A DNA stretch of 64,000 bases, from positions 1 to 64,000 of IMG/VR virus record IMGVR_UViG_3300018422_000002, one strand, 5' to 3'. This DNA comes from a virus. Position numbers and translations under genes: made by a program. The notes under the pieces are model-generated. The model had not been told where the DNA came from. It worked only from the letters and a program-made list of their open reading frames with translations, and ran no database searches. Positions 1,383 through 39,795 of the stretch are shown piece after piece. How positions within the stretch are numbered: the first letter of the stretch is position 1; each line of letters opens with the position of its first letter.

Positions 1383-1642
1383 GTTCGTTCCTCCAGCTGA
1401 CCGACGCGTGCGGCCAGCTCGTCCAGCGCGGAGTCCTCGACCGCGTCGAACGCGTCTAGGCGAACCCGCAGGTCGCTGACCTGGTCACGCAACTGGTCCA
1501 TACCACCGGCCAGCGCGTCGAGGGCGACGTGCAGTCGGTCGATCGCCGTCGCCTGTCGTCGCGTCGCACGATAGAGCAGTGAGCACAGACGACGGACCGC
1601 CAGTGGCACGTCGGCGAGCTTACCACGCGGCGACGGCGTCAT
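1379..1642 (-). CDS. coiled-coil hypothetical protein
   Basis: ORF 1379..1813 trimmed to ATG 1642, which overlaps the upstream stop (ATGA). Heptad-like, D/L/R-rich sequence. Confidence 0.6.
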   Translation of the reverse strand: MTPSPRGKLADVPLAVRRLCSLLYRATRRQATAIDRLHVALDALAGGMDQLRDQVSDLRVRLDAFDAVEDSALDELAARVGQLEERT

Positions 1643-2007
1643 AACAACTCCTCGATCGCCGTGGCGATCGCGGAGAACGACGGACGGTAGTCGTCGTTCA
1701 CGGTGGACAGCGACAGCTCCATTCGATCGTACGTGACGAGCGGGTCCAGCGCCGGTAGATCGGCCCAGTCGACGACCTCGCGGGGCAGAAAGTCGTCCAC
1801 ACCGGCGTACCACCGCGCGCCGAGCACGACGTCGTCGCTGACCTGTAGCTCGAGACCCGCACGCACCGCGACCTCACAGAGCACGCCCAGGCAGCAGTAG
1901 CCGTACGGCCGACCCTCCTCGTCGACACGCGTGAGCTTGCCGGTGGTCCGCGCGAACTCACCGGAGCGCAGCGCGGCGACCCACAGGTCACGTACCTCCC
2001 GTCTCAC
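1639..2007 (-). CDS. CCLGVLC-motif paralog 1 of 5 (unknown function)
   Basis: GTG 2007 overlaps the upstream stop (GTGA). Motifs WVAALRSGEF, CCLGVLCE, WADL, VNDD, FSAIATAIEELL. Confidence 0.75.
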   Translation of the reverse strand: MRREVRDLWVAALRSGEFARTTGKLTRVDEEGRPYGYCCLGVLCEVAVRAGLELQVSDDVVLGARWYAGVDDFLPREVVDWADLPALDPLVTYDRMELSLSTVNDDYRPSFSAIATAIEELL

Positions 2008-2378
2008 AGCTCCTCCTCGATCAGGGTGGCGATCACCGTGAACGTGCCCCGCTGGACACCGTATCCGTCGTTCCAGCCCGACAGCGGTAGACCTCGAACC
2101 CGAGGATCGGCTGCCCACGCATCGTCCTGCGGCAGCCCCGCCCACCGCACCACGGCGGGCGGCAGCTGACCGGTGTAGTCGCCCTCGTCGGGGTCTGCTA
2201 CCGACGTGTACGCGTTCGTCGCGAGGTCGAACGTCACGATCCCACGCTCGCGTGCCACCTCGCAGAGCACGCCTAGGCAGCAGAACTGACCCAGCGGCGA
2301 CCGCAGCTGCCCCCACCCCTGCGGGTAGTCGCCGGAGCGCAGCCGGCGCACCCACTCGTCCCGGACCGCCGGGTCCAT
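2004..2378 (-). CDS. CCLGVLC-motif paralog 2 of 5
   Basis: ATG 2378 lies 8 nt after the upstream stop. Motifs WVRRLRSGDYPQG, CCLGVLCE, WAGL, WNDG, FTVIATLIEEEL. Confidence 0.75.
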   Translation of the reverse strand: MDPAVRDEWVRRLRSGDYPQGWGQLRSPLGQFCCLGVLCEVARERGIVTFDLATNAYTSVADPDEGDYTGQLPPAVVRWAGLPQDDAWAADPRVRGLPLSGWNDGYGVQRGTFTVIATLIEEEL

Positions 2379-2386
2379 GCGCGTCG

Positions 2387-2743
2387 TCACAGGTGCCTCT
2401 CGATCAGGTGACTGATGTCGTCGAACGACGAACGCTCGGTGTCGTTCCACGTCGAGAGCAGCCGGCCACCTACCATCGGGTCACCGCTGGCCAGCCCCGC
2501 CCACTCCTTGACGTCGACCGGCAGCACGCCGTTGAGGCCGGTCTCGAGCTGCGTTGTGAGCCCGTAGAACAGCCCGTGACGGTACTCGGCCACGCCGTTG
2601 GCGGCGGCCAGCTCGCACAGCACCCCCAGGCAGCAGTGGTACGTGGTGCCGTCGGCGTCGTGACGTCGCAGTCGACCCTGGCCCTGCACGTACTCGCCGG
2701 AGCGGAGCGCGGCCAGCCAGCGGGCCTTCACGTCGGGGTTCAC
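2387..2743 (-). CDS. CCLGVLC-motif paralog 3 of 5
   Basis: GTG 2743 in a GTGA overlap. Motifs WLAALRSGEYVQG, CCLGVLCE, WAGL, WNDT, FDDISHLIERHL. Confidence 0.75.
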   Translation of the reverse strand: MNPDVKARWLAALRSGEYVQGQGRLRRHDADGTTYHCCLGVLCELAAANGVAEYRHGLFYGLTTQLETGLNGVLPVDVKEWAGLASGDPMVGGRLLSTWNDTERSSFDDISHLIERHL

Positions 2744-3144
2744 AGGTGCCTCCTGATCAGCTCGGCGATCTCGGCGAACGACCGACGCGAGTGCTCGGCT
2801 CCCACCGTCACGCTGCCGTCGTTGTGCGTCGCCAGATCGACGCTGGCCACGATGGGGTTGCCGTTCGGCAGACCGGCCCAGGTGACGACCGTGGGCGGCA
2901 GCTGCGTGGCGTAGCACTTGGCGGGAGTGATCCCCCGGTCGACGCCCACGTCGTGGTAGTAGTACCGGTCGAAGTCGAGCGTGCGGGCGATCACACCGTC
3001 CGCGTACGCCAGCTCGCACAGGACGCCGAGGCAGCAGTATCGGAACACGCCCGGTGCCACCTCACGCGCCAGCAGGTCCCGGCCCTGCGTGTACTCACCG
3101 GACGTCAGCGCGGCGAGCCACCGCGCCTTGACCTCGGGATTCAT
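2740..3144 (-). CDS. CCLGVLC-motif paralog 4 of 5
   Basis: ATG 3144. Motifs WLAALTSGEYTQG, CCLGVLCE, WAGL, HNDG, FAEIAELIRRHL. Longer central insert. Confidence 0.75.
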   Translation of the reverse strand: MNPEVKARWLAALTSGEYTQGRDLLAREVAPGVFRYCCLGVLCELAYADGVIARTLDFDRYYYHDVGVDRGITPAKCYATQLPPTVVTWAGLPNGNPIVASVDLATHNDGSVTVGAEHSRRSFAEIAELIRRHL

Positions 3145-3149
3145 CTCGG

Positions 3150-3635
3150 TCACAGGTACTCCTCGATCAGCCGCGCGATGGTATCGAAGTTCTCGGACGC
3201 GTGCGACGTGCCGTCCGCGAACGTGCTGTCCTCGCCGTCGTTCCACACGGTCAGTTCGACGCCGGCCACCACCGGACTGATCAGCGCGCCCTCGAGGCCG
3301 TCCTCGCGGACGACCAGGCCGGCCCAGCGCGCGACCGACCTCGGCAGCAGCGAGCTCTCCGGGTCCTCGTCCTTGTCGTCCTCGTCGTGATACGCGTACG
3401 TCGCGTGGTTACCGGCGGAGCCGACGACCTCGCGGGTCACCACGCCGTCACGGTACGCGAGGTCGCACAGTACGCCGAGGCAGCAGAAGCGTGGTGAGGT
3501 TCCATCGATCCCCGCGTCGTAGTGCAGCAGCTCGCGTCCCTGGACGTAGTCACCGGAGCGGAGCGCCGCGACCCAGCGCGTCTTGATCGCGGCGTTCATG
3601 CGGACGGCGGGTGGTTCGATCTGGGTAGTAGGCAC
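3150..3635 (-). CDS. CCLGVLC-motif paralog 5 of 5
   Basis: GTG 3635 lies 1 nt after the upstream stop (alternative ATG 3599). Motifs WVAALRSGDYVQG, CCLGVLCD, WAGL, WNDG, FDTIARLIEEYL. Acidic central insert. Confidence 0.75.
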   Translation of the reverse strand: MPTTQIEPPAVRMNAAIKTRWVAALRSGDYVQGRELLHYDAGIDGTSPRFCCLGVLCDLAYRDGVVTREVVGSAGNHATYAYHDEDDKDEDPESSLLPRSVARWAGLVVREDGLEGALISPVVAGVELTVWNDGEDSTFADGTSHASENFDTIARLIEEYL

Positions 3636-3636
3636 G

Positions 3637-3960
3637 CTACTCCTCGGTCGGTTCGGTCGGTAGTGGATCGGGCTCGCCGCCCGGCACCAAGAGAAGGTAC
3701 CGCGCGGCGAGCGCCACGTTCACGTCCGTGACGGTCACGAAGGTGACGTCGCGCTGGTCGTCCAGACGATCGTTCACGAGGACGCGCAGCGACGGTGCCG
3801 CCCGGTGCGCCAGCGGTCCGCGTCGGACCAGGTTGGGCGCGGCGAGCAGCGCCTGCCGGAGCGTGTGCTCCACCAGCGCGGACGCGTCGGTCGCCGTGGC
3901 GGCGTCGACGTCCGCGACCACGACGACGGCCACGCGGTGACGCGTCAGGTCGTCGGTCAC
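3637..3960 (-). CDS. hypothetical protein
   Basis: 107-aa ORF. GTG 3960 overlaps the upstream stop (GTGA). High G/C3. Confidence 0.6.
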   Translation of the reverse strand: MTDDLTRHRVAVVVVADVDAATATDASALVEHTLRQALLAAPNLVRRGPLAHRAAPSLRVLVNDRLDDQRDVTFVTVTDVNVALAARYLLLVPGGEPDPLPTEPTEE

Positions 3961-4173: not shown

Positions 4174-4323
4174 TCACCTCTCCAGCTCCCCGGGATCCGG
4201 CGGCGGCGTCGTGTGATCGCCGCCGATCGAGCACGTGCAGTCGTTGCTGTGCACGCCGTGCCGGTCGTACCACGTGTGGGTGTGCGTGTTCGACCCGAGG
4301 TCGCGGAACTCGTCCTCGCTCAC
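4174..4323 (-). CDS. small protein with DCTC..GG.HT motif
   Basis: 49-aa ORF, too short for the ORF track. GTG 4323 overlaps the stop of 4320..4706 (GTGA). Sequence VSEDEFRDLGSNTHTHTWYDRHGVHSNDCTCSIGGDHTTPPPDPGELER. Confidence 0.5.
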   Translation of the reverse strand: MSEDEFRDLGSNTHTHTWYDRHGVHSNDCTCSIGGDHTTPPPDPGELER

Positions 4324-4706
4324 GACGCCACGCACTCGAACTCGCGGTCCGACGCGGCGGCCTCACGTGCGCGGCGGTTCACCTCGTCGAACCAGAGGAG
4401 CTCGGACACGCGACCGGTGAACGCGGCACCCTCGGTGGGGCTGCCCAGGTGGTTACCGTACAGCCGGTCGAGGCCGAGCTCGTAGCCGCCGAACACCTGC
4501 GCCAGCAGGCAGCGGCGTGGGTCGGCCAGGTCAAGCGTGGCGCGGTCGACGCGCGTCCACCACGTCGGGTCGACGGCGTCCAGTCGGCGGGCGGCGAGCG
4601 CGACCAGGGCGCGTGTCCGGTCGTCGACGCGGGCCTGCAGGTAGCCTAGGCCGAGGAGGGTGGACGGTCGGTAGCGGGACGGTCGGCCCGTGAGTGAGGT
4701 TCGCAT
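4320..4706 (-). CDS. hypothetical protein, RLDAV..W.TRVD / RRC..QVFG.Y family (paralog a)
   Basis: 128 aa. ATG is preceded by GAAGGAG. Aligns with 4785..5162. Confidence 0.7.
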   Translation of the reverse strand: MRTSLTGRPSRYRPSTLLGLGYLQARVDDRTRALVALAARRLDAVDPTWWTRVDRATLDLADPRRCLLAQVFGGYELGLDRLYGNHLGSPTEGAAFTGRVSELLWFDEVNRRAREAAASDREFECVAS

Positions 4707-4784: not shown

Positions 4785-5162
4785 TCACGCCGACGCGGTG
4801 ACCAGCAGCTCGCGCCACGACTCGACCGGGAACCCACCCAGGAACGCCGCGTCTCCGGGACCGTGTCCGATCGGACCGTACAGCTCGTCGACGCCCCGGC
4901 CGTAGTCACCAAACACCTGGCCGATCACGCACCGCCTGAGGTCGTCCATGTCCAGCCGATCCGGGTCGACGCGCGTCCGCCAGTCCGGGACCACGGCGTC
5001 CAGTCGGGCGACGGCGTCGGCGAGCAGCAGGTCGCAGACGGCGTTCGCGAGCCTCGCGTCCTCGTGGACGTCCGTGCAGGTGATACAGCAGAAGCGGCCG
5101 TCGTTCAGGTACGCGCGTGCGCGCTCCTCAAGGGTGGGAACCTCGGTGGTCGTCGTAGTCAC
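4785..5162 (-). CDS. hypothetical protein, RLDAV..W.TRVD / RRC..QVFG.Y family (paralog b)
   Basis: ORF 4785..5249 trimmed to GTG 5162, which is preceded by AGGAG and overlaps the upstream stop (GTGA). Confidence 0.7.
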   Translation of the reverse strand: MTTTTTEVPTLEERARAYLNDGRFCCITCTDVHEDARLANAVCDLLLADAVARLDAVVPDWRTRVDPDRLDMDDLRRCVIGQVFGDYGRGVDELYGPIGHGPGDAAFLGGFPVESWRELLVTASA

Positions 5163-5359
5163 GATGTCTCCTGGGTCGTGGGTCGTAGGAGCGTCGGGTC
5201 GGCGCTCCGGTAGACGGTCAGCGGCGCGCCCGGCGGCAGCCCGACGCACGCGCGGAGCAGCGCCTCGTCGGCGCTCCGCGTGACCGCCGCCGGAGACGGT
5301 GGCACGCGGACGCGCACGAACTCGACGACCACCGCCAGGCGGCCGGCACGCTGTGACAC
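5159..5359 (-). CDS. hypothetical protein
   Basis: 66-aa ORF. GTG is preceded by AGGAGAG. Confidence 0.5.
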   Translation of the reverse strand: MSQRAGRLAVVVEFVRVRVPPSPAAVTRSADEALLRACVGLPPGAPLTVYRSADPTLLRPTTQETS

Positions 5360-5369
5360 GGTATCTCTC

Positions 5370-5675
5370 CTAGCGGTCGCGGTCGCGGTTCAGGCCGGGC
5401 ACCGCGCCCGCGCGCGGCACTAGGTAGTCGTCGGCGTCGGCGCAGTCCCGTAGGTACGTGCCCTCGGCGCAGGTCGTCCCGGGAATCAGGTAGACCTCGT
5501 AGTCGCCGTCACCGTCCTTCACCTCGACCTTCACGCCGTTGCGGCCGGTCTCCACCTCGAGGATCTTGCCGTCCTCGTTCGGCAGACAGGCGGACGACAG
5601 ACCGCCTAGCACGACGGCCACGGCGGCCAGCGCGACGGCTCGGTACGTCCTCGTCGTCCTCGTCCTACTCATCAT
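5370..5675 (-). CDS. putative secreted protein or lipoprotein
   Basis: N-terminus is basic, then hydrophobic, then LSSAC (lipobox-like, not a perfect match). GAAGGAG upstream. ATGA overlap. Confidence 0.6.
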   Translation of the reverse strand: MMSRTRTTRTYRAVALAAVAVVLGGLSSACLPNEDGKILEVETGRNGVKVEVKDGDGDYEVYLIPGTTCAEGTYLRDCADADDYLVPRAGAVPGLNRDRDR

Positions 5676-5979
5676 AGCTCCTTCAGCTCTCGGTCGTGGG
5701 CCCCGCAGTCGCAGGGCCCGGGTCGTAGCGACGCGCAGGTGGACCGGTGCTGCGGCCCGCCGAGCGCGCCGCAGCGGAAGCCCAGCGCGACGGCGTGGGC
5801 GCGGTCGCGCGCGCCCAGGTCGGCGAACAGCACGCGGACGCGGTTCCTCACGGCGTTCTCGGACAGGCCGAGGTGACGGGCGATCCGCGCGTTCGTGTAG
5901 CCCTCGGCCAGCAGCTCCAGCACCTCGCGCAGCCGGTCGACGCGGCTCGGTGGGGGCGGACGTCGCGCGTTGGGCGTCG

Positions 5980-5983
<4 letters not shown>
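5672..5983 (-). CDS. LuxR/GerE-type HTH DNA-binding protein
   Basis: LREVLELLAEGYTNARIARHLGLSENAVRNRVRVLFADLG matches the GerE HTH pattern. GTGA overlap. Confidence 0.7.
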
Positions 5984-6219
<236 letters not shown>

Positions 6220-6235: not shown

Positions 6236-6757
6236 TTAGGCGGTAGGGGTGGTGGGAACGGTAGGGGCGACGGTGGTTCGGACGGCCCGCAGCGCGCGGA
6301 GCCCGTCGACGAGCTGCGCGGCGGCCAGCGGCCCGACGTCCGTCGCCAGGTCGACGATCACCCAGGACAGCGCGTCCGGCTGATCTACGTGGATACGTCT
6401 GGCGTACGCGTGACAGACGGCCCAGCTGGTACCAGACGGCCCGTCGCGTAGGTCGGCCCACGCCAGGTACGAACGGTCGGACGGCGGAGGCACGTCCAGC
6501 GCGGCCGGACGGAGGTGGTCGGCGGTCCGCAGCTCTAGGAGGTCGTTGTGCGTCGTCACGACGTCCCGGGCGAGCTCCTCCCAGACGGCGTAGAACATCG
6601 TGCGATCGCCCGCGTCCACGTCCTGCTCCGACGTCGGTCGATCCACGGTCGCGACCGCCCAGCCGCCGACCTCGTCGTCGCGGACGACGTACCAGGGGGC
6701 GGCGCGGAGCAGCGCGAGCTGCTCGCGGGCGAGGGCGGTCAGGTCGCTCGCGCTCAC
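6236..6757 (-). CDS. hypothetical protein
   Basis: ORF 6236..7060 trimmed to GTG 6757, which overlaps the stop of 6754..6999 (GTGA). Confidence 0.6.
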   Translation of the reverse strand: MSASDLTALAREQLALLRAAPWYVVRDDEVGGWAVATVDRPTSEQDVDAGDRTMFYAVWEELARDVVTTHNDLLELRTADHLRPAALDVPPPSDRSYLAWADLRDGPSGTSWAVCHAYARRIHVDQPDALSWVIVDLATDVGPLAAAQLVDGLRALRAVRTTVAPTVPTTPTA

Positions 6758-7701: not shown

Positions 7702-10275
7702 GTGACGTCGCGAAACACCACAAGGTGTGAGGAACGAGGGGACGGTACCGTCGGCGTCTACGCCCGGTGGGCGGCGGTAGCTGGGACGCCGCGCGTGGTC
7801 AGACGCGACGTCCCCGACCGCTACCCATCATGGGACGAACTCCGGCACAGAGGAAGGACGGCGTTCATCTTGACAGATCGTATCAGCGGACGCACAACTA
7901 CCCCGTACGGCGACGCCGCACGCGTGTACCGCGACCTGGGCTGGCGCGGCGTGCTGCCGGCGGACCTGAACGGACGACCGGGACACGTGCCGGCGGGCTT
8001 CAGCGGCGGCCACGACGTCGACCCGGACGACGACCAGGTCGCGGCGTGGGTCGCGTCGCACGGGGACCACAACGTCGCGCTGCGGCTGCCGGACGACGTG
8101 CTCGGCCTGGACGTCGACGTCTACGGCGACAAGCACGGCGATCAGACGGTGGACTACGTGGCCTACCAGCTGGGCGGCGACGGCGCGGGCGAGCTGCCGC
8201 CCACGTGGACGAGCACGGCGCGCGGCGCGGACCAGCGCAGTCGCATTCACCTGTACCGCGTGCCGGCCGGCGGGCGGTGGCGCAGCGACCTCGGGCGCGG
8301 CAGCTCCGTCGAGGTCATCCGGCGCGGCCACCGCTGGGTCCGGTGCTGGCCGTCGATCAACCGCAAGGCGCCCGGCGAGCCGGTCTACCGGTGGTACCGA
8401 CCGGACGGCACCGAGTCGGACCGGCCGCCGCGTCCGGAGGAGCTCGCCGAGCTGCCCAGCGCGTGGCTGGACGTACTGCGGGACGACGCGGCGATCCAGC
8501 TGCCCGGTCGGGCGTCGGCGGGCGACCGAGGGGATCACCGGCACGACGACGCGCCGTCCCTGGATCAGGACGGTCAACCGGTGGATCCGGATCTGATCCT
8601 CGAACGTGGCCTCGGTACGGAGGTCAACCAGCAGGTTGAGCTGTTCCGCTACATGTGCTCGCTGCGGGCACGCAACCTACGTCGGTCCGAGATGATCGCG
8701 CTCGGCATGTGCGCGCTTCAGAGGATCAGTAACGTACCGGGACACCTCAAGGGCGACTGGTGCCCCGACGACATCATCAAGCTCGTGGACCGCGTCCGAC
8801 GCGAGTACGCACCAGGTGGTGCGACGCAGCTCACGCCGGCGATGCAGGCGTTCGCCGAGCGCGTCCGCACCGGCACGATCACGGTGGACGAGCCGCCGCT
8901 CGTCGAGGAGTCGGCCACGGACCTGGGCAACAGCCTGCGGTTCGCGCGGCTCTTTCGGGACCGCGTCCGGTACGCGGCAGACGTCGAGCGGTGGTACGTC
9001 TGGGACGGTCGGCGGTGGGCGCCGGACCGCACCGGGCGCGTCGTCGACCTGACCAAGCACGTCATCGACGACGTCCGGAGGACGGCGCTCACGGAGACCG
9101 GCGACGACCAGGGACGGTGGACGCAGTGGGCGCACCAGTCGGAGTCACTAGCACGTCGCGAGGCGACGATCAAGGGCGCGCGGTCCGAGCCGGGCATCGT
9201 GGTGCAGTCGGACGTCTTCGACACCGACCCGCAGCTGCTCGTCGTGCGGAACGGCACGCTCGACCTGCTGACCGGTGAGCTACGTCCCAGCGAACCGACG
9301 GACCTGTGCAGCCAGCTCGCCGAGGTCGACTACGACCCCGACGCGACCTACGAGCGTTGGATCAGGCACGTACGGCTGCTCTGTCGCGACGACCAGGAGC
9401 TGGTGGCGTACATGGCGCGTGCGGTCGGCTACACGCTGACCGGCGACGTCGGCGCGCGGTCGTTCTTCTTCCTGGAGGGTCGCGGCTCGAACGGTAAGAA
9501 CACGTTCATCGAGCCGATCATGCAGATGATGGGGTCGTACGCGCAGACGGCGGCGCCCAGCCTGGTCGTCGGCGGCGAGGACCAGCACCCGACGGTCATC
9601 GCCGACCTACTCGGTGCGCGGCTCGTGTTCGTCGACGAGACACGCAAGGAGCAGAAGCTCAACGCGGAGCGCATCAAGGCCCTCACCGGTTCTAAGCTGC
9701 TCAAGGCGCGGCAGATGCGCAAGGACTTCTTTCAGTTCGAGGCAAGGTTCAAGCTCTGGATCGCGGGGAACGGTGCGCCTCGACTGCAGGACGACTCGGA
9801 CGGCGTCTGGAAGCGACTGCACCGCATCGTCTGTCACGGGAAGGTCACGGACGCGCAGCGCATCGACCGGTTCGGCGACGTGCTCTACCAGGAGGAGGCC
9901 GGCGGCATCCTCAACTGGGCGTTGACGGGACTGCGGGATTACCGGACGCGGCGGCTCGCGACGCCGGAGACCGTCGTCGCGGACGTGGCCAGCTTCCGGC
10001 ACGACGAGAACTACGAGCTTCAGTTCTTCGAGGAGTACGTCGAGGTCACCGGTGACCCGGCGGATCGACTCACCAGTCAGCAGCTCTTCGCGGCGTACGA
10101 GCGCTGGTGCGAGTTCAACGGCGTGCGCACACACGAGCGGAAGAACAACGTCTACCTGTCGCGGTCGGTAAGTGGGTTCGAGCTGGACGGCGTCGGTCCG
10201 GCCGAGTGGAAGATGCAGGGCAGAAAGGTCAGGGGCTTCAACGGCATCCGTTGGATCGTGTCGACCGACGACTAG
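7702..10275 (+). CDS. bifunctional DNA primase-polymerase / D5-N / P4-type SF3 helicase
   Basis: 857 aa. Prim-pol DxD (LGLDVDVYG). D5_N-like region (NSLRFARLF...WYVWDGRRW). Walker A GRGSNGKN within FFFLEGRGSNGKNTFIEPIM, and Walker B VFVDE. Confidence 0.9.
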   Translation: MTSRNTTRCEERGDGTVGVYARWAAVAGTPRVVRRDVPDRYPSWDELRHRGRTAFILTDRISGRTTTPYGDAARVYRDLGWRGVLPADLNGRPGHVPAGFSGGHDVDPDDDQVAAWVASHGDHNVALRLPDDVLGLDVDVYGDKHGDQTVDYVAYQLGGDGAGELPPTWTSTARGADQRSRIHLYRVPAGGRWRSDLGRGSSVEVIRRGHRWVRCWPSINRKAPGEPVYRWYRPDGTESDRPPRPEELAELPSAWLDVLRDDAAIQLPGRASAGDRGDHRHDDAPSLDQDGQPVDPDLILERGLGTEVNQQVELFRYMCSLRARNLRRSEMIALGMCALQRISNVPGHLKGDWCPDDIIKLVDRVRREYAPGGATQLTPAMQAFAERVRTGTITVDEPPLVEESATDLGNSLRFARLFRDRVRYAADVERWYVWDGRRWAPDRTGRVVDLTKHVIDDVRRTALTETGDDQGRWTQWAHQSESLARREATIKGARSEPGIVVQSDVFDTDPQLLVVRNGTLDLLTGELRPSEPTDLCSQLAEVDYDPDATYERWIRHVRLLCRDDQELVAYMARAVGYTLTGDVGARSFFFLEGRGSNGKNTFIEPIMQMMGSYAQTAAPSLVVGGEDQHPTVIADLLGARLVFVDETRKEQKLNAERIKALTGSKLLKARQMRKDFFQFEARFKLWIAGNGAPRLQDDSDGVWKRLHRIVCHGKVTDAQRIDRFGDVLYQEEAGGILNWALTGLRDYRTRRLATPETVVADVASFRHDENYELQFFEEYVEVTGDPADRLTSQQLFAAYERWCEFNGVRTHERKNNVYLSRSVSGFELDGVGPAEWKMQGRKVRGFNGIRWIVSTDD

Positions 10276-35405: not shown

Positions 35406-37298
35406 ATGGCGTGGCCGTTCCGGCGTCGCTCCTGGACCCGTCAACACGCCGCCGCACCGTTCGTCGCGGACCCAGCGGTGACGTCGCTGGCCGACCTACC
35501 ACCGGTACCTCCCGTCGTGACCGCGACCCAGCCTGAGAGCATGACGGCCGCCGCGCTGGCGCTGACGTCGATGATCGGTGGTCGCCGCGCGCTGGTCCCG
35601 CAGTACGAGTCCTGGCAGCGTGAGCTCTGGGACTACTACGACGAGATGGGCGACTTCGGCTACGCCGTCACGTGGCGCTCGAACATGGTCTCGCGCGTTC
35701 GACTGCGGGCCGGTAAGATCGAGGCCGGCAACGACGAGCCGACCATCGTCGACGACGGCCCCGCCGCCGAGATCGTCGCCGAGCTTTCGAACGACCTGAG
35801 CAGTACCGCCGACCTAATGTCGTCGCTGTCGGTCCACCTGGACATTCCGGGTGAGGGCTGGCTCATCGGTGAGGTCATCAACGGGCGAAACCGCTGGCAG
35901 GTTCGCTCCAACGACGAACTTCGTCGTCGGGTCGAGACGTTCGAGGTGATCAGCGAGACGTCCGCGCTCGGCAACATCGAGTGGCGGCCGCTCGCGCCTG
36001 AGCACTTCATCGTCCGCATCTGGCGACCGCATAAGCGCTACCGTCACCTGCCGTACTCGCCGGCCAAGGCGGCGCGCTCGGCGATGCGTGAGCTGGAGCT
36101 CGCCAACCGTCACATTCAGGCGCAGTACCTGTCGCGCCTCGCGTCGGCCGGCGTCGTCATCTTCCCAGACGAGATCACGTTCCCGGTCCGTCCCGAGTTT
36201 CAGGACGCCGTCGACCCGTTCGTCCGCGAGTGGATCGAGACCGCGTCTGAGGCGATCAAGACGCCGGGTACCGCCGCCTCCGTCGTGCCGATCCCGATCC
36301 GCGTACCCGGCGAGTACATCGACAAGATCAAGCACATCGACTTCACGCTGAAGCTCGACGAGAAGATCATCGAGAAGCGAGACGCGGCGCGACGGGCGCT
36401 CGCGTCGATGATCAACGTCCCGACCGAGCTGCTCTTCGACGCTGGCTCGTTGAACCACTGGGGACTGTGGCAGCTCGAGGAGTCGGCGATCAAGGTGCAC
36501 ATCGCGCCGGACGTCGAGATCATGACCAACGGTCTGACCGTCGGCTACCTTCATCCACGACTGCGCGCGGAGGGCGTCGAGGACTGGGAGGACTGGGTCG
36601 TCTGGTACGACGCGTCCGAGATCATCGCGCGTCCGGACCGGTCGAACAACGTGCTCAAGGCGTACGACCGCTTTGAGGTCAACGGTAAGACGCTACGTCG
36701 AGAGATCGGACTCACCGAGGACGACGCACCCACCGACACCGAGCTGCAGGAGATGGTGCTGAAGCGACTGGCGTCGAACCCACAGATCGGCTTCCTGGTG
36801 TTGCACGAGCTGACCGGTATGCCGCTACCGGAGGAGTACCTGGCGCAGCAGCCGGACACCGACGTCACCGGCCAGCGGAACGCGAACCACCAGCGATCGG
36901 ACGCGCTTCCGGACCGGGACGACGACTACCAGGAGGGCGACGCCGGCTCGACCGGCGCCGACTCGACGAAGGCGCCGGGTGACGACCTCGACAACGTGGC
37001 GGCCCAGGTGGAGCGACGCGACGCGTTCGTGATCCTACAGGCACGATCGCAGCACGTCATGGAGTTCAACGTCACCGGCTGGAAGCTTAAGCACCCGCTG
37101 CTGTGTCAGGAGCACCTGTTCTCGTGTCCGTTCACGTACGCGACTCGCGACGGTGTGACGATCCGACCGGGAACGTCGGGCAACTACGAGTGCTTCCTCG
37201 ACGGCGGCGGCGACGTCCGGATCGGACGTCGAATCTTTGCGCGCGACGACGAGCTGCTGCCTACCGAACCGGAGCGCGTTAATGGCCACCGACGCTAG
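35406..37298 (+). CDS. portal protein
   Basis: ~630 aa, lying between terL and the protease. ATG 35406 lies 5 nt after GGAG, whereas the track start GTG 35400 abuts the SD. Confidence 0.75.
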   Translation: MAWPFRRRSWTRQHAAAPFVADPAVTSLADLPPVPPVVTATQPESMTAAALALTSMIGGRRALVPQYESWQRELWDYYDEMGDFGYAVTWRSNMVSRVRLRAGKIEAGNDEPTIVDDGPAAEIVAELSNDLSSTADLMSSLSVHLDIPGEGWLIGEVINGRNRWQVRSNDELRRRVETFEVISETSALGNIEWRPLAPEHFIVRIWRPHKRYRHLPYSPAKAARSAMRELELANRHIQAQYLSRLASAGVVIFPDEITFPVRPEFQDAVDPFVREWIETASEAIKTPGTAASVVPIPIRVPGEYIDKIKHIDFTLKLDEKIIEKRDAARRALASMINVPTELLFDAGSLNHWGLWQLEESAIKVHIAPDVEIMTNGLTVGYLHPRLRAEGVEDWEDWVVWYDASEIIARPDRSNNVLKAYDRFEVNGKTLRREIGLTEDDAPTDTELQEMVLKRLASNPQIGFLVLHELTGMPLPEEYLAQQPDTDVTGQRNANHQRSDALPDRDDDYQEGDAGSTGADSTKAPGDDLDNVAAQVERRDAFVILQARSQHVMEFNVTGWKLKHPLLCQEHLFSCPFTYATRDGVTIRPGTSGNYECFLDGGGDVRIGRRIFARDDELLPTEPERVNGHRR

Positions 37299-39795
37299 TC
37301 ACACCGGCGCGATGATCGCGCTGGTGCCGTCTGAGGCGGATCTCGACCGCCTCGTGGTCGACGGCGGTGAACCGCGTGACGAGCTACACCTGACGCTCTA
37401 CTACCTTGGTGACGCGGCCGACGTCGACGACGAGGTACGTAGGAGCATGATCACGGCGATCGGTAGCAAGATCACCGATCGCGATGAGCAGCCCGTTCAC
37501 GCGGTCGCGTTCGGCGTCGCCCAGTGGAACCCGACGAGCGACGACCCCGCGTGGGTGCTCAACGTCGGTGACTCGCCAGAGGGTGAGTCGTTGGGTTACG
37601 TCCGTGGTATGGTCGGTGAGGCGCTGTACGACGGTGGGATCGACGTCAAGATGCCGATCCAGCACACACCGTGGCAGCCGCACATCTGCCTCATCTACTC
37701 GGCCGATCAGGATCGGCACGCTGACCTACTGCGTCGCCTCGGTGATGTGACCTTTGATCGTGTAAGACTTGCGTTCGGCGGTGAGGTTACGAACCTGCCG
37801 CTGGGACGTGCTGCTACCGTAGCCTCGACGTCAGGAGGTACCATCGTGCCGTGGCACATCGTCCAGGGTCACGCCGAGTGCCCCGAGGGAAGCCCGTGGG
37901 CCGTCGTGAAGGACGCCGACGGTTCGGTGGCGGGCTGTCACGCGTCCGAGGCCGCCGCGAACGACCAGCTCGCCGCGCTGTACGCGTCCGAGAACGAGGC
38001 CACCGTGACCGACTCGATCGCCTACGTCGGTGAGACAGGTCCCGAACTAACCATGCCACCCGTCAGGACGTACGTCACACCCGTCGTCACCAACACGGCG
38101 ACGGCCACGGTCGCCGCTGCCGAGACGCTCGCATGCGCGACCGACGACTGTCCCGAGGGCCACCGGCGACTGCCGAACGGCGAGTGCCTGTCGCCCGAGG
38201 AGTACGCGACGCGCGCCGCGTGGCACGGCGTCCTCGTCGTCGAGGGCGTCACGACCGGCGACGGTCGCGAGTTCGGCGTCGACGCGCTGACCTGGGCGGA
38301 CAACGCGCTGCTTCGCTGGCAGAAGGAGGGCTCGCACGGCGGCGACCACGACGTGACGGTGTCCGTCGGTCGGATCGACGAGGTGTGGCGCGTCGGTAAC
38401 CAGGTCCGAGGTCGCGGCATGTTCGACATCGAGTCCGCCGACGGCTTCGAGATCGCACGACGCATGAAGGACAACTTCGCCGGTGGCATCTCGATCGACG
38501 CCGACGACATCCAGGACGCCGACGTCGAGTTCGTCTGGGCCGAGAACCCGGAGGGCGTCGACGAGGACGACCCACTGCTGATGCTCTTTGGTCGACCGGA
38601 GAAGGTCATCTACAACGGAGGTCGCGTTCGCGCGGCCACGCTGTGCGACATCCCGGCGTTCGTCGAGGCACGCATCCAGCTCGGCGTACCGGACGACGCG
38701 CTCATCTCTAGTGTGGTGAGCACGACCATCTCACCGGCCGTCGTCCTCGCGCACCAGACGGAGACGACCGACGGACCGTGGGACGCGACCGCGTGGCGGC
38801 GACTTCCCAACATCATGCCGTTGGCACAGGCTCGACAGGCGTACGCCTGGGTCGACGAGCCGGTCGGTGAACGCGTCGGAAAGATCAACTGTGACTACCT
38901 ACATCACGAGGTTCACGACGGTAAGGTACTCGGCGCGAACCTGACCGCGTGTGCCGTCGCCATCGCCACACTGCGAACCTCGGCGCACGGTCCTGAGGAC
39001 CGAGCCGCGATCTACGCGCACCTCGCACAGCACCTGCGCGACGCCGGCCAGGAGCCACCGCCGCTGGACGAGACCGACGCGGTGACCGCCGCGATCACGC
39101 TGGACGCGTGGCGACCGGAGCGCGCGTGGTTCGAGGATCCGCAGTTCTCGGTGCACACCGGCATCACGGTGACGGACGAGGGCCGCGTCTACGGACACGC
39201 CGCACCGTGGGGCGAGTGCCACATCGGTCACCAGCAGGAGTGCATCACGCTACCGCGCGAGGACGCGCACCCGTACTTCATGACCGGTGAGGTCGTCTGC
39301 GCCGACGGCTCACGCGTAGGCGTCGGACAGATCACGGTCGGAACCGGACACGCGCCGCTGGGCTACCGCGCGTCGCACGCGGCGGAACACTACGACAACA
39401 CGGGCGCGGCCGTCGCCGACGTCACCGTGGGCAACGACCAGTTCGGACTCTGGGTCGCCGGTGCGATCCGCCCGTCCGTGGCCGCGTCGCGCGTTCACGA
39501 GCTGCGTGCGTCCGGTCGACTGTCCGGCGACTGGCGTCGCATCGGAGGTAAGCTGCGTCTCGTCGGCCTACTGGCCGTCAACGTCCCGGGCTTCCCGCTG
39601 TCGCCACCGCGTGCACGCGTCGCGTCCGGAGCACCGCTGGCGCTGGTCGCGGCCGGTGCCGGTGCCGCACTGGGACCGGGTAACCGCATGGTCGAGCTCA
39701 CCGAGGACGACCTCAACCGCGAGGCGATGCGACGCGTCATGAACGTGCTCGCGACGCGTGTACGCCGGAACGAACACGAGATGGAGGGAGCGTAG
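37282..39795 (+). CDS. capsid maturation protease/scaffold-like fusion with N-terminal 2H-phosphoesterase (LigT)-like domain
   Basis: ATG 37282. N-terminus has HLTL and PHICL motifs ~130 aa apart. The middle and C-terminus resemble prohead protease regions (position-based call). Confidence 0.65.
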   Translation: MATDASHTGAMIALVPSEADLDRLVVDGGEPRDELHLTLYYLGDAADVDDEVRRSMITAIGSKITDRDEQPVHAVAFGVAQWNPTSDDPAWVLNVGDSPEGESLGYVRGMVGEALYDGGIDVKMPIQHTPWQPHICLIYSADQDRHADLLRRLGDVTFDRVRLAFGGEVTNLPLGRAATVASTSGGTIVPWHIVQGHAECPEGSPWAVVKDADGSVAGCHASEAAANDQLAALYASENEATVTDSIAYVGETGPELTMPPVRTYVTPVVTNTATATVAAAETLACATDDCPEGHRRLPNGECLSPEEYATRAAWHGVLVVEGVTTGDGREFGVDALTWADNALLRWQKEGSHGGDHDVTVSVGRIDEVWRVGNQVRGRGMFDIESADGFEIARRMKDNFAGGISIDADDIQDADVEFVWAENPEGVDEDDPLLMLFGRPEKVIYNGGRVRAATLCDIPAFVEARIQLGVPDDALISSVVSTTISPAVVLAHQTETTDGPWDATAWRRLPNIMPLAQARQAYAWVDEPVGERVGKINCDYLHHEVHDGKVLGANLTACAVAIATLRTSAHGPEDRAAIYAHLAQHLRDAGQEPPPLDETDAVTAAITLDAWRPERAWFEDPQFSVHTGITVTDEGRVYGHAAPWGECHIGHQQECITLPREDAHPYFMTGEVVCADGSRVGVGQITVGTGHAPLGYRASHAAEHYDNTGAAVADVTVGNDQFGLWVAGAIRPSVAASRVHELRASGRLSGDWRRIGGKLRLVGLLAVNVPGFPLSPPRARVASGAPLALVAAGAGAALGPGNRMVELTEDDLNREAMRRVMNVLATRVRRNEHEMEGA

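Follow-up and report, generated by a model that had tools for sequence, protein, structure and literature searches.

Five translationally coupled DUF8296 paralogs in tandem in a divergent, uncultured actinophage genome

Five consecutive leftward genes that encode diverged paralogs of one small protein lie near the left end of a 64,000-nucleotide (nt) stretch of viral DNA (IMG/VR record IMGVR_UViG_3300018422_000002, positions 1 to 64,000; this whole stretch is called the window below). An earlier note on this DNA had reported the genes and described a common motif order, and we examined the array for its family, predicted structure and evolution. The open reading frame (ORF) listing contains five consecutive minus-strand ORFs where the earlier note had placed its genes, with stops at 1639, 2004, 2387, 2740 and 3150. 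The genes are given here in the order in which they are read, with the matches of their products to the phage protein family phrog_18067:

3150-3635, minus strand: gene 5, 161 amino acids (aa), net charge -15; an ORF matching phrog_18067 (E = 1.5e-15), with PF26948 recorded on an identical public protein
2740-3153, minus strand: gene 4, 137 aa from the GTG at 3153 (134 aa if started at the ATG at 3144); phrog_18067 E = 5.2e-14
2387-2743, minus strand: gene 3, 118 aa, the shortest copy and the nearest to the family consensus; phrog_18067 E = 3.7e-19
2004-2390, minus strand: gene 2, 128 aa from the GTG at 2390 (124 aa if started at the ATG at 2378); phrog_18067 E = 8.7e-13
1639-2007, minus strand: gene 1, 122 aa, the fastest-evolving position; phrog_18067 E = 1.8e-12

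The G+C content of all five genes is 0.85-0.91 at third codon positions (GC3) and 0.46-0.53 at second codon positions (GC2), a strong coding signature in a genome of 67-70% GC. Two antisense ORFs on the plus strand (2252-2914 and 2746-3390), with GC3 of 0.73-0.77 and GC2 of 0.57-0.61, were rejected as non-coding. A full-length alignment of the five products has 30 invariant columns, any two of them are 41-59% identical, and each scores 110-136 bits against a hidden Markov model (HMM) built from 89 family members. Because the alignment spans the full length, and because every protein also matches phrog_18067 by hmmscan, the similarity extends far beyond the short motifs from which the array was originally recognized. 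Those motifs do occur in the order first described, and in all five proteins: W..AL(R/T)SG.(Y/F), CCLGVLC(E/D), a variable segment, LP..V..WA(G/D)L, (W/H/V)ND and F..I(A/S)..I(E/R)..L, with.QG following the first motif in four of the five. Residues that are invariant in the family are all retained in each copy. Isoelectric points range from 4.4 to 5.75, and neither a signal peptide nor a transmembrane segment was evident by eye in the array protein sequences. In gene 5 a 12-aa leader stands at the N terminus, the central beta-hairpin is long (residues 67-83), and the loops contain two extra insertions. The family HMM detected no sixth copy elsewhere in the 64-kb window, and no long identical DNA repeats are present.

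The claim that these genes are translationally coupled holds throughout, with one correction: the array most likely contains no 8-nt gaps. All four internal junctions are GTGA overlaps once genes 2 and 4 are started at the GTG codons at 2390 and 3153, and the junctions and the upstream neighbor read as follows:

3637-3960, minus strand: upstream neighbor in the same leftward operon, 107 aa, without a family assignment and not a DUF8296 member
3150-3164, minus strand: junction of genes 5 and 4; GAGGAG (3159-3164) in I-E-E codons, a 5-nt spacer, and GTG (3151-3153) overlapping TGA (3150-3152)
2740-2754, minus strand: junction of genes 4 and 3; AGGAGG (2749-2754), a 5-nt spacer and a GTGA overlap (2740-2743)
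2387-2401, minus strand: junction of genes 3 and 2; GAGAGG (2396-2401), a 5-nt spacer and a GTGA overlap (2387-2390)
2004-2018, minus strand: junction of genes 2 and 1; GAGGAGGAG (2010-2018), then a GTGA overlap (2004-2007)
1639-1653, minus strand: junction of gene 1 and a downstream 87-aa gene (1379-1642); GAGGAG (1648-1653) and an ATGA overlap (1639-1642)

Read directly from the sequence, the start/stop overlap cTGTGA is common to the four internal junctions, and a Shine-Dalgarno-like GAGGAG, AGGAGG or GAGAGG stands 5 nt ahead of each internal overlap, encoded within the C-terminal I-E-E, I-R-R or I-E-R codons of the preceding gene. The ATG codons at 2378 and 3144 lie 14 nt from the Shine-Dalgarno sequence, and the public gene calls use the overlapping GTGs. 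Since every junction carries the same Shine-Dalgarno sequence and start/stop overlap, genes 2 and 4 most likely begin at GTG 2390 and GTG 3153, and the two ATGs are less likely starts. With these GTG starts the apparent gaps disappear and the array runs unbroken into its flanking genes; at the upstream end, the stop of the 107-aa gene falls 1 nt before the start of gene 5 (a 1-nt gap at 3636). Each unit of the array ends in codons that spell a Shine-Dalgarno sequence followed by the GTGA overlap. Consequently, a duplicated unit is already coupled to any gene that follows it.

The array proteins are members of a catalogued family, Pfam PF26948 (DUF8296) and phrog_18067. The same five proteins occur on the public contigs L002 and L003, where all five have precomputed PF26948 hits (E <= 1e-5). 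Scans of the array proteins against the Pfam and NCBIfam libraries gave no significant match in a copy of Pfam searched without the PF26948 model. PADLOC models, which cover defense proteins only and are uninformative here, gave 0 matches for the five array genes and five neighbors. We found no literature on PF26948/DUF8296, phrog_18067 or the CCLGVL motif. The family is nevertheless very large. At least 7,811 matches came from a profile search across 5.8 billion proteins, with PF26948 on all 120 of the matches listed, and when 1.84 billion representatives were scanned exhaustively with HMMER, at least 44,693 clusters (50% identity) passed E <= 1e-3 and 28,666 passed E <= 1e-10. At least 576 IMG/VR loci contain the family.

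Its distribution is not that of an actinophage family. The only cultured phages found to carry DUF8296 are Synechococcus phages B3, B23 and S-H1, Ralstonia phage RSP15, Alteromonas phages AD45-P1 to AD45-P4 and Bradyrhizobium phage ppBjS10J-1, and there was no member in any of the cultured actinophages searched. Across one genome each of 185,579 prokaryotic species, the core motif was present at only 39 loci, which span Actinomycetota, Pseudomonadota, Bacteroidota, Planctomycetota, Deinococcus, Saccharibacteria and other groups; the Amycolatopsis copy, the one cellular locus whose neighbors we examined, lies in the early region of a prophage. DUF8296 is thus a family of phages of many phyla and not an actinophage family. 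Its members are mostly acidic, with a mean net charge of -7.6 and 91-93% of them negative. No neighboring gene is conserved across 79 viral loci, where the commonest neighbor cluster occurs in 11 of the 79 and 4-8 genes away; judged by eye from sequence only, recurrent neighbors resemble early or replication genes (metallophosphoesterase, sigma-like and Cas4-like). The N-terminal extensions of four members (P0039, P0075, P0117 and P0180) contain no Pfam domain.

Arrays are not peculiar to this phage. Two to five copies (within 6 kb on either side) were found at 21 of 79 IMG/VR loci, the other 58 being single-copy, and of the fetched loci spanning 8 kb or more, 22 of 76 were multicopy. Eleven of the 39 genome loci are also multicopy, with up to six copies, and 28 are single-copy. 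Multicopy arrays, at about 28-29% of loci and with 2-6 copies, are therefore routine in DUF8296; five copies stand at the upper end of the range, and six is the maximum seen. Some arrays are young, with 62-69% identity within the array at loci L053 and L033, for example, which points to repeated, independent duplications, and expansions recur in unrelated phages and prophages. The earlier note had considered whether the family might turn out to have a well-characterized function in which such arrays are routine: the arrays are indeed routine, and no profile or fold search supplies a function.

The domain was modeled with AlphaFold2 using an 89-sequence alignment. The model of gene 3 (mean predicted local distance difference test score, pLDDT, 94.1; predicted template modeling score, pTM, 0.89) has a helix, two short strands, a second helix, a beta-hairpin, a lower-confidence loop, and three helices with two short bridges. 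The gene 5 model (pLDDT 88.8, pTM 0.85) has the same core with a much longer hairpin (strands 67-74 and 77-83). In both, the domain is predicted to be a small alpha/beta fold whose conserved core consists of five helices and a small sheet. Foldseek searches of the PDB with both models gave best E-values of 1.7-1.9 and template modeling (TM) scores below 0.3, and the RecA and ketosteroid-isomerase rows among these results were set aside as noise. A PDB sequence-profile search with the family profile found no match, and Foldseek against BFVD matched only uncharacterized phage proteins. On this evidence, the fold predicted for DUF8296 has no solved representative. The UniRef name of one homolog (P0118, 'PH domain-containing protein') does not fit the predicted topology and was disregarded.

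Conservation was assessed over 224 non-redundant domains, numbered here as in gene 3. Near-invariant positions are W9, L13, R14, S15, G16, Y18, Q20, L25, C37, C38, L39, G40, V41, L42 and C43, together with the LP, V, W, N-D, F and I-A..I-E positions. R14 is conserved in 90% of the domains, S15 in 94%, Y18 in 92% and Q20 in 97%; C37 and C38 reach 100% and C43 97%, values inflated by the use of the CCLGVLC pattern to retrieve the loci; and the N and D of WND (HMM columns 101/102, N100/D101 in gene 3) are both at 98%. The core thus contains a near-invariant polar cluster formed by the R-S-G-x-Y-x-Q-G loop, the CCLG cysteines with the third cysteine, and the W-N-D motif. Even the very distant members carried by cyanobacterial, Ralstonia and Alteromonas phages keep C37, G40, C43, N100 and D101. 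In both models the Cys-Cys-Leu-Gly sequence lies at the N terminus of helix 2, with the third cysteine one turn on. With near-invariant R, S, Y, Q, three C, N and D residues, the fixed scaffold of the earlier note resembles a conserved functional site more than a passive frame.

Variation is found elsewhere on the domain. Insertions and deletions concentrate at four sites (HMM columns 29-33, 61-69, 88-94 and 104), which correspond to four loops that vary in both length and sequence. The largest is the central beta-hairpin arm, so the main variable segment is, as first described, in the middle of the protein and is a hairpin of differing length; divergence is not confined to it, as three further loops vary, between beta1 and beta2, after WAGL, and between WND and F. 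These family-wide indel sites coincide with the patches at which orthologs of the array proteins differ.

Related phages allow the history of the individual copies to be followed. One relative (L084) has an orthologous array of five copies; a second (L166, 3251-4837) has four and lacks precisely the gene 4 unit; and an 89,898-bp JGI contig has six, as counted from its proteins. Between the window and L084, positional orthologs share 82, 80, 82, 82 and 54% identity for positions 5 to 1, and gene 1 is 54-57% identical to its positional orthologs. Because identity between orthologs at positions 2-5 exceeds the 41-59% between paralogs, the duplications predate these phages and each copy has been maintained individually; as far as sequence comparison can tell, the copies are not redundant. 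In the comparison of L166 with L084, the position-5 genes share 75% identity and positions 3 and 2 share 97-98%, a sign that sequence has been exchanged in mosaic fashion, or has changed faster, at the array's upstream end. IMG/VR yielded no close relative of gene 5, and a metagenome scan gave only distant family members.

Selection was estimated as the ratio of nonsynonymous to synonymous rates (dN/dS) by the Nei-Gojobori method (NG86) from the orthologous arrays of two related phages. Two segments are of particular interest here:

2902-2994, minus strand: residues 54-84 of gene 4 (the variable beta-hairpin), which may be under diversifying selection
3348-3446, minus strand: residues 64-96 of gene 5, comprising its long beta-hairpin and an acidic stretch, YHDEDDKDEDPESS

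Pooled over genes 5 to 2, dN/dS is 0.23 in the core and 0.79 in the variable segments. For gene 4, the 36 variable codons give counts of 17 nonsynonymous to 0 synonymous changes (binomial p = 0.009; Fisher p = 1e-4 for variable segments against core). Codons 54-87 differ from L084 by 10 nonsynonymous and 0 synonymous codon changes, next to core sequence with many synonymous ones, and at the tip of the hairpin 8 of 9 consecutive codons (74-82) differ from the ortholog, all nonsynonymously and mostly by single-nucleotide steps. In gene 5, dN/dS is 1.05-1.34 in the variable segments and 0.14-0.51 in the core (Fisher p = 5e-4 for W5/X5); the cores of genes 5 and 4 both fall at 0.14-0.5. Differences in gene 5 occur in four patches (residues 39-47, 64-93, 109-122 and 135-148), with different patches changed in different lineages. 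Gene 1 has a core dN/dS of 0.58 and about 0.9 in its variable segments. The earlier proposal of a fixed framework with a diversifying surface is thus partly supported, by the core and by the localized excess of nonsynonymous change in genes 4 and 5, and is not supported by genes 2 and 3, in which the variable segments are under purifying selection.

These results bear directly on the possibility that the array is debris, that is, decaying duplicates without individual function or an artifact of ORF calling. Spurious ORFs are many in high-GC DNA, and gene 1, with its core dN/dS of 0.58, is diverging fast. Against this, the five genes are intact with GC3 of 0.85-0.91, core dN/dS is 0.14-0.35 in genes 2-5, and every copy retains the family-invariant residues and has an ortholog in related phages. 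Purifying selection and conserved orthology effectively refute this explanation, and we give it almost no weight.

The same orthology could be explained if the paralogs were distinct subunits of one hetero-oligomer, with the variable loops as inter-subunit or cargo contacts. Positions 2-5 are conserved as such across relatives at 80-82% identity, tight translational coupling would favor equimolar co-synthesis, and natural two- and three-domain DUF8296 fusions exist, among them P0121 with its conserved linkers. Such fusions are rare, however; members are almost always stand-alone single domains, and none of about 250 domains at the fetched loci was fused. Most phages, moreover, are not multicopy at all: one copy is present at 58 of the 79 viral loci and at 28 of the 39 genome loci, and close relatives gain or lose one unit to reach 4, 5 or 6. 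We find an assembly of this kind improbable.

The conserved cluster raises another possibility, that DUF8296 is an enzyme or a binder of small molecules or nucleotides, such as a signal sponge or a thiol-dependent modifier, with the Cys/Asn-Asp/Arg-Ser/Tyr/Gln cluster as its putative site. Loops would then tune substrate or ligand specificity, and the array would cover several related substrates. The 90-100% conservation of the polar and cysteine residues (again with inflated cysteine values), the retention of C37, G40, C43, N100 and D101 in very distant members, and purifying selection throughout genes 2 and 3 all favor such a role, as does the position of CCLG in both models, the N terminus of a helix being a classic position for a reactive cysteine. 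On the other side, Pfam, NCBIfam and PDB searches returned no sequence or fold match to any enzyme or sponge; the domain, at about 115 aa, has no conserved His or Lys for a catalytic set; and the distant homolog in phage S-H1 has neither C38 nor the RSG.Y.QG loop. A purely enzymatic role also explains poorly why nonsynonymous changes should cluster at the tip of a hairpin. We regard this explanation as rather unlikely, while ranking it first among the rivals of the host-directed reading given below.

The window is part of a tailed-phage genome, with genes for a primase-polymerase (7702-10275), a large terminase, a portal, a major head protein and a tape-measure protein. It had no megablast match among 50,697 GenBank phage records, and the 877 records matched by its capsid protein are all from actinophages, none above 35% identity; the phage represents a deeply divergent, uncultured actinophage lineage. 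The same genes are present in an ENA assembly of 93,390 bp (k141_5495573) and a JGI assembly of 93,372 bp. The ENA contig (L002) has 0 mismatches to the window over 6,513 nt and ends at window position 6513. Because it ends inside the window despite this identity, the two assemblies are circular permutations of each other, and the complete genome is probably about 93 kb.

The array is within a long leftward operon that diverges from the primase-polymerase gene, and its neighbors are small genes without family assignment and two genes with GerE-type helix-turn-helix (HTH) domains. We take this operon to be an early or host-interaction region. The two GerE/LuxR-type HTH genes (5672-5983 and 1143-1382, both minus strand) bracket the array and are kept in related phages (precomputed PF00196). 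A second pair of paralogs is also present in the operon (4320-4706, minus strand, 128 aa, and 4785-5249, minus strand, 154 aa). They share 50% identity over 72 aa (BLASTP E = 2e-17) and the motif RLDAV.P.W.TRVD...LD..D.RRC...QVFG.Y..G.D.LYG, and neither PHROG nor Pfam matches are on record for them.

With two HTH genes in the same operon, the cysteines could have a regulatory meaning. The three cysteines, possibly with the WND aspartate, might bind Zn or an Fe-S cluster and modulate host transcription factors, which would make the array a set of metal- or redox-sensing regulators. WhiB-like proteins are often carried by actinophages, the present phage is an actinophage with GerE-type genes flanking the array, and three near-invariant cysteines fall within seven residues with a conserved Asp elsewhere. 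Nevertheless, the proteins match neither Pfam Whib (PF02467) nor any metal-binding family, and they have only three conserved cysteines versus the four cluster-binding cysteines that WhiB-like proteins require. Two adjacent cysteines are ill-suited to ligating one metal, and some distant members lack C38 or C43. DUF8296 is also widespread outside Actinobacteria, where WhiB-like partners do not exist. We consider a regulator of this type very unlikely.

As the best reading of the array, though one that we would stop short of calling probable, we suggest tentatively that the five proteins form a repertoire of co-expressed, host-directed binders in which the loops set target specificity and the polar/cysteine cluster provides a common activity. 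The proteins would be made together, early in infection, and the repertoire would act on the host in takeover or counter-defense. The putative conserved pocket would supply the common activity or a partner contact, and the variable loops would set the host target engaged by each copy. Copies 4, 5 and 1 may chase changing targets, with copies 2 and 3 locked on conserved ones.

Several observations weigh against a host-directed repertoire. No homology was found that links any DUF8296 member to a host target or a defense system, and polar residues and cysteines that are nearly invariant would be expected in an enzyme or a ligand-binding site sooner than in a passive scaffold. Acidic proteins are in any case common in actinobacteria of high GC content. 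At the amino acid level, neighboring genes are 64-92% identical, compared with about 80% for the DUF8296 genes, so the array as a whole is not evolving unusually fast. The gene 4 signal comes from one ortholog pair and 36 codons and is borderline after correction for multiple tests, and in gene 5 a dN/dS near 1 might mean only that its loops are loosely constrained. Finally, the variable segments of genes 3 and 2 have dN/dS of 0.09-0.20 and are under purifying selection like the core, the hairpin of gene 3 being conserved between orthologs.

A broader version of the host-directed reading would apply to the whole family. DUF8296 may be a very large phage-specific superfamily with an unsolved fold, built on modular recognition, in which a putative Cys/Asn-Asp pocket that would supply one shared activity or partner contact is combined with up to four hypervariable loops, chiefly the beta-hairpin arm, that redirect it to host targets, for example defense proteins, and in which arrays and fusions are repertoires that expand and contract with host immunity. 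At present we consider this wider generalization doubtful.

The interest of the locus is in the size of the family, its unsolved fold and the selection signal, and not in the array itself. DUF8296 is one of the larger phage-restricted families, has no literature or solved structure, and is almost absent from cultured phages. The window offers a compact natural experiment, with five co-oriented, individually conserved paralogs, relatives with four or six, and two copies in which nonsynonymous change is concentrated in a predicted surface hairpin. If the proteins are host-directed binders, the array would be a panel for target discovery, including actinobacterial defense systems, and would add a new structural class to the phage counter-defense proteins. 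If instead the putative pocket is catalytic or binds a ligand, the domain would be a new small enzyme or sponge fold. In both cases the family merits structure determination and pull-down experiments.

Other features of this genome were recorded during the analysis. An ortholog of Ro60 (551 aa, TROVE and vWA_Ro60 domains) is encoded at 7721-9376 of L002, about 1.2-2.9 kb beyond the left end of the window, and is also present in the 89,898-bp relative. A 79-aa ORF (5980-6219, minus strand; GC3 0.94) encodes a hydrophobic segment followed by an unbroken run of 13 aspartates, AADDDDDDDDDDDDDSRG. In the head module, an 852-aa protein (37237-39795, plus strand) matches phage 'RNA ligase' PHROGs over residues 17-195 (E = 1.7e-25), and its C-terminal region matches PHROGs named portal protein, head maturation protease and virion structural protein; it is an unusual fusion, and its gene adjoins the portal gene. 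No tRNA genes, and no Rfam families at gathering score, were found in the window. A consensus scan gave 0 promoter-like sites and 1 terminator-like site (plus strand, 239-254), no more than in shuffled sequences, and is uninformative in DNA of high GC content.

Among known systems, the small acidic inhibitors encoded in phage early regions, such as Ocr, ArdA and many anti-CRISPRs, offer one comparison. They lack enzymatic homology and are extremely diverse in sequence, and the array proteins are likewise small, acidic and encoded in a presumed early region. PDB and BFVD searches gave no sequence or fold match between the array proteins and characterized anti-defense proteins. To our knowledge, the known small inhibitors of phages rarely occur in paralog arrays, and we know of none that share an invariant Cys/Asn-Asp cluster.

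Another resemblance is to PF19698 (DUF6197), a family of similar size found in actinophages and Streptomyces. Its motif order, similar by eye to that of DUF8296, is a helix, G-W-x-x-G, C-x-C-A-L-G, a variable segment, F-N-D and a C-terminal helix; the second and third cysteines of DUF8296 are not shared. Thirteen of 89 DUF8296 members have sub-threshold matches over nearly the whole DUF6197 profile, which has a gathering score of 24.6 bits. The best member (P0117) reaches 20.6 bits and gene 3 reaches 13.2 bits (E = 0.12), and genes 1, 2, 4 and 5 have no match to it. An A2 HMM search did not detect gp47 and gp72 of Gordonia phage Nebulosus (both DUF6197), and hhalign of DUF8296 against a shallow alignment of five Gordonia DUF6197 sequences gave a probability of 0.4%. 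We therefore do not place the array in DUF6197, since the matches are below the gathering score and neither the HMM search nor hhalign supports homology. DUF6197 is itself duplicated and tandem-fused in Gordonia cluster A15 phages (PMC10586128). Its own function is unknown, so the resemblance yields no functional lead.

Viral host-range multigene families provide a third comparison. In poxvirus K3L amplification and in the MGF360/505 families of African swine fever virus, tandem paralog arrays behave as 'gene accordions', on which we found no relevant literature in bacteriophages. The present array is likewise tandem, its copy number varies among close relatives (4, 5 and 6), and some copies have localized, mostly nonsynonymous change. 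It differs in lacking recent, near-identical duplicates, as its copies are old (41-59% identity) and positionally orthologous, and in consisting of single small domains in a coupled, bacterial-type operon. The closest comparison is with the family to which the array belongs. With the other members of PF26948/phrog_18067 it shares the length class, the CCLGVLC and WND motifs, the single-domain form and the tandem habit, and it shows no difference in kind from them.

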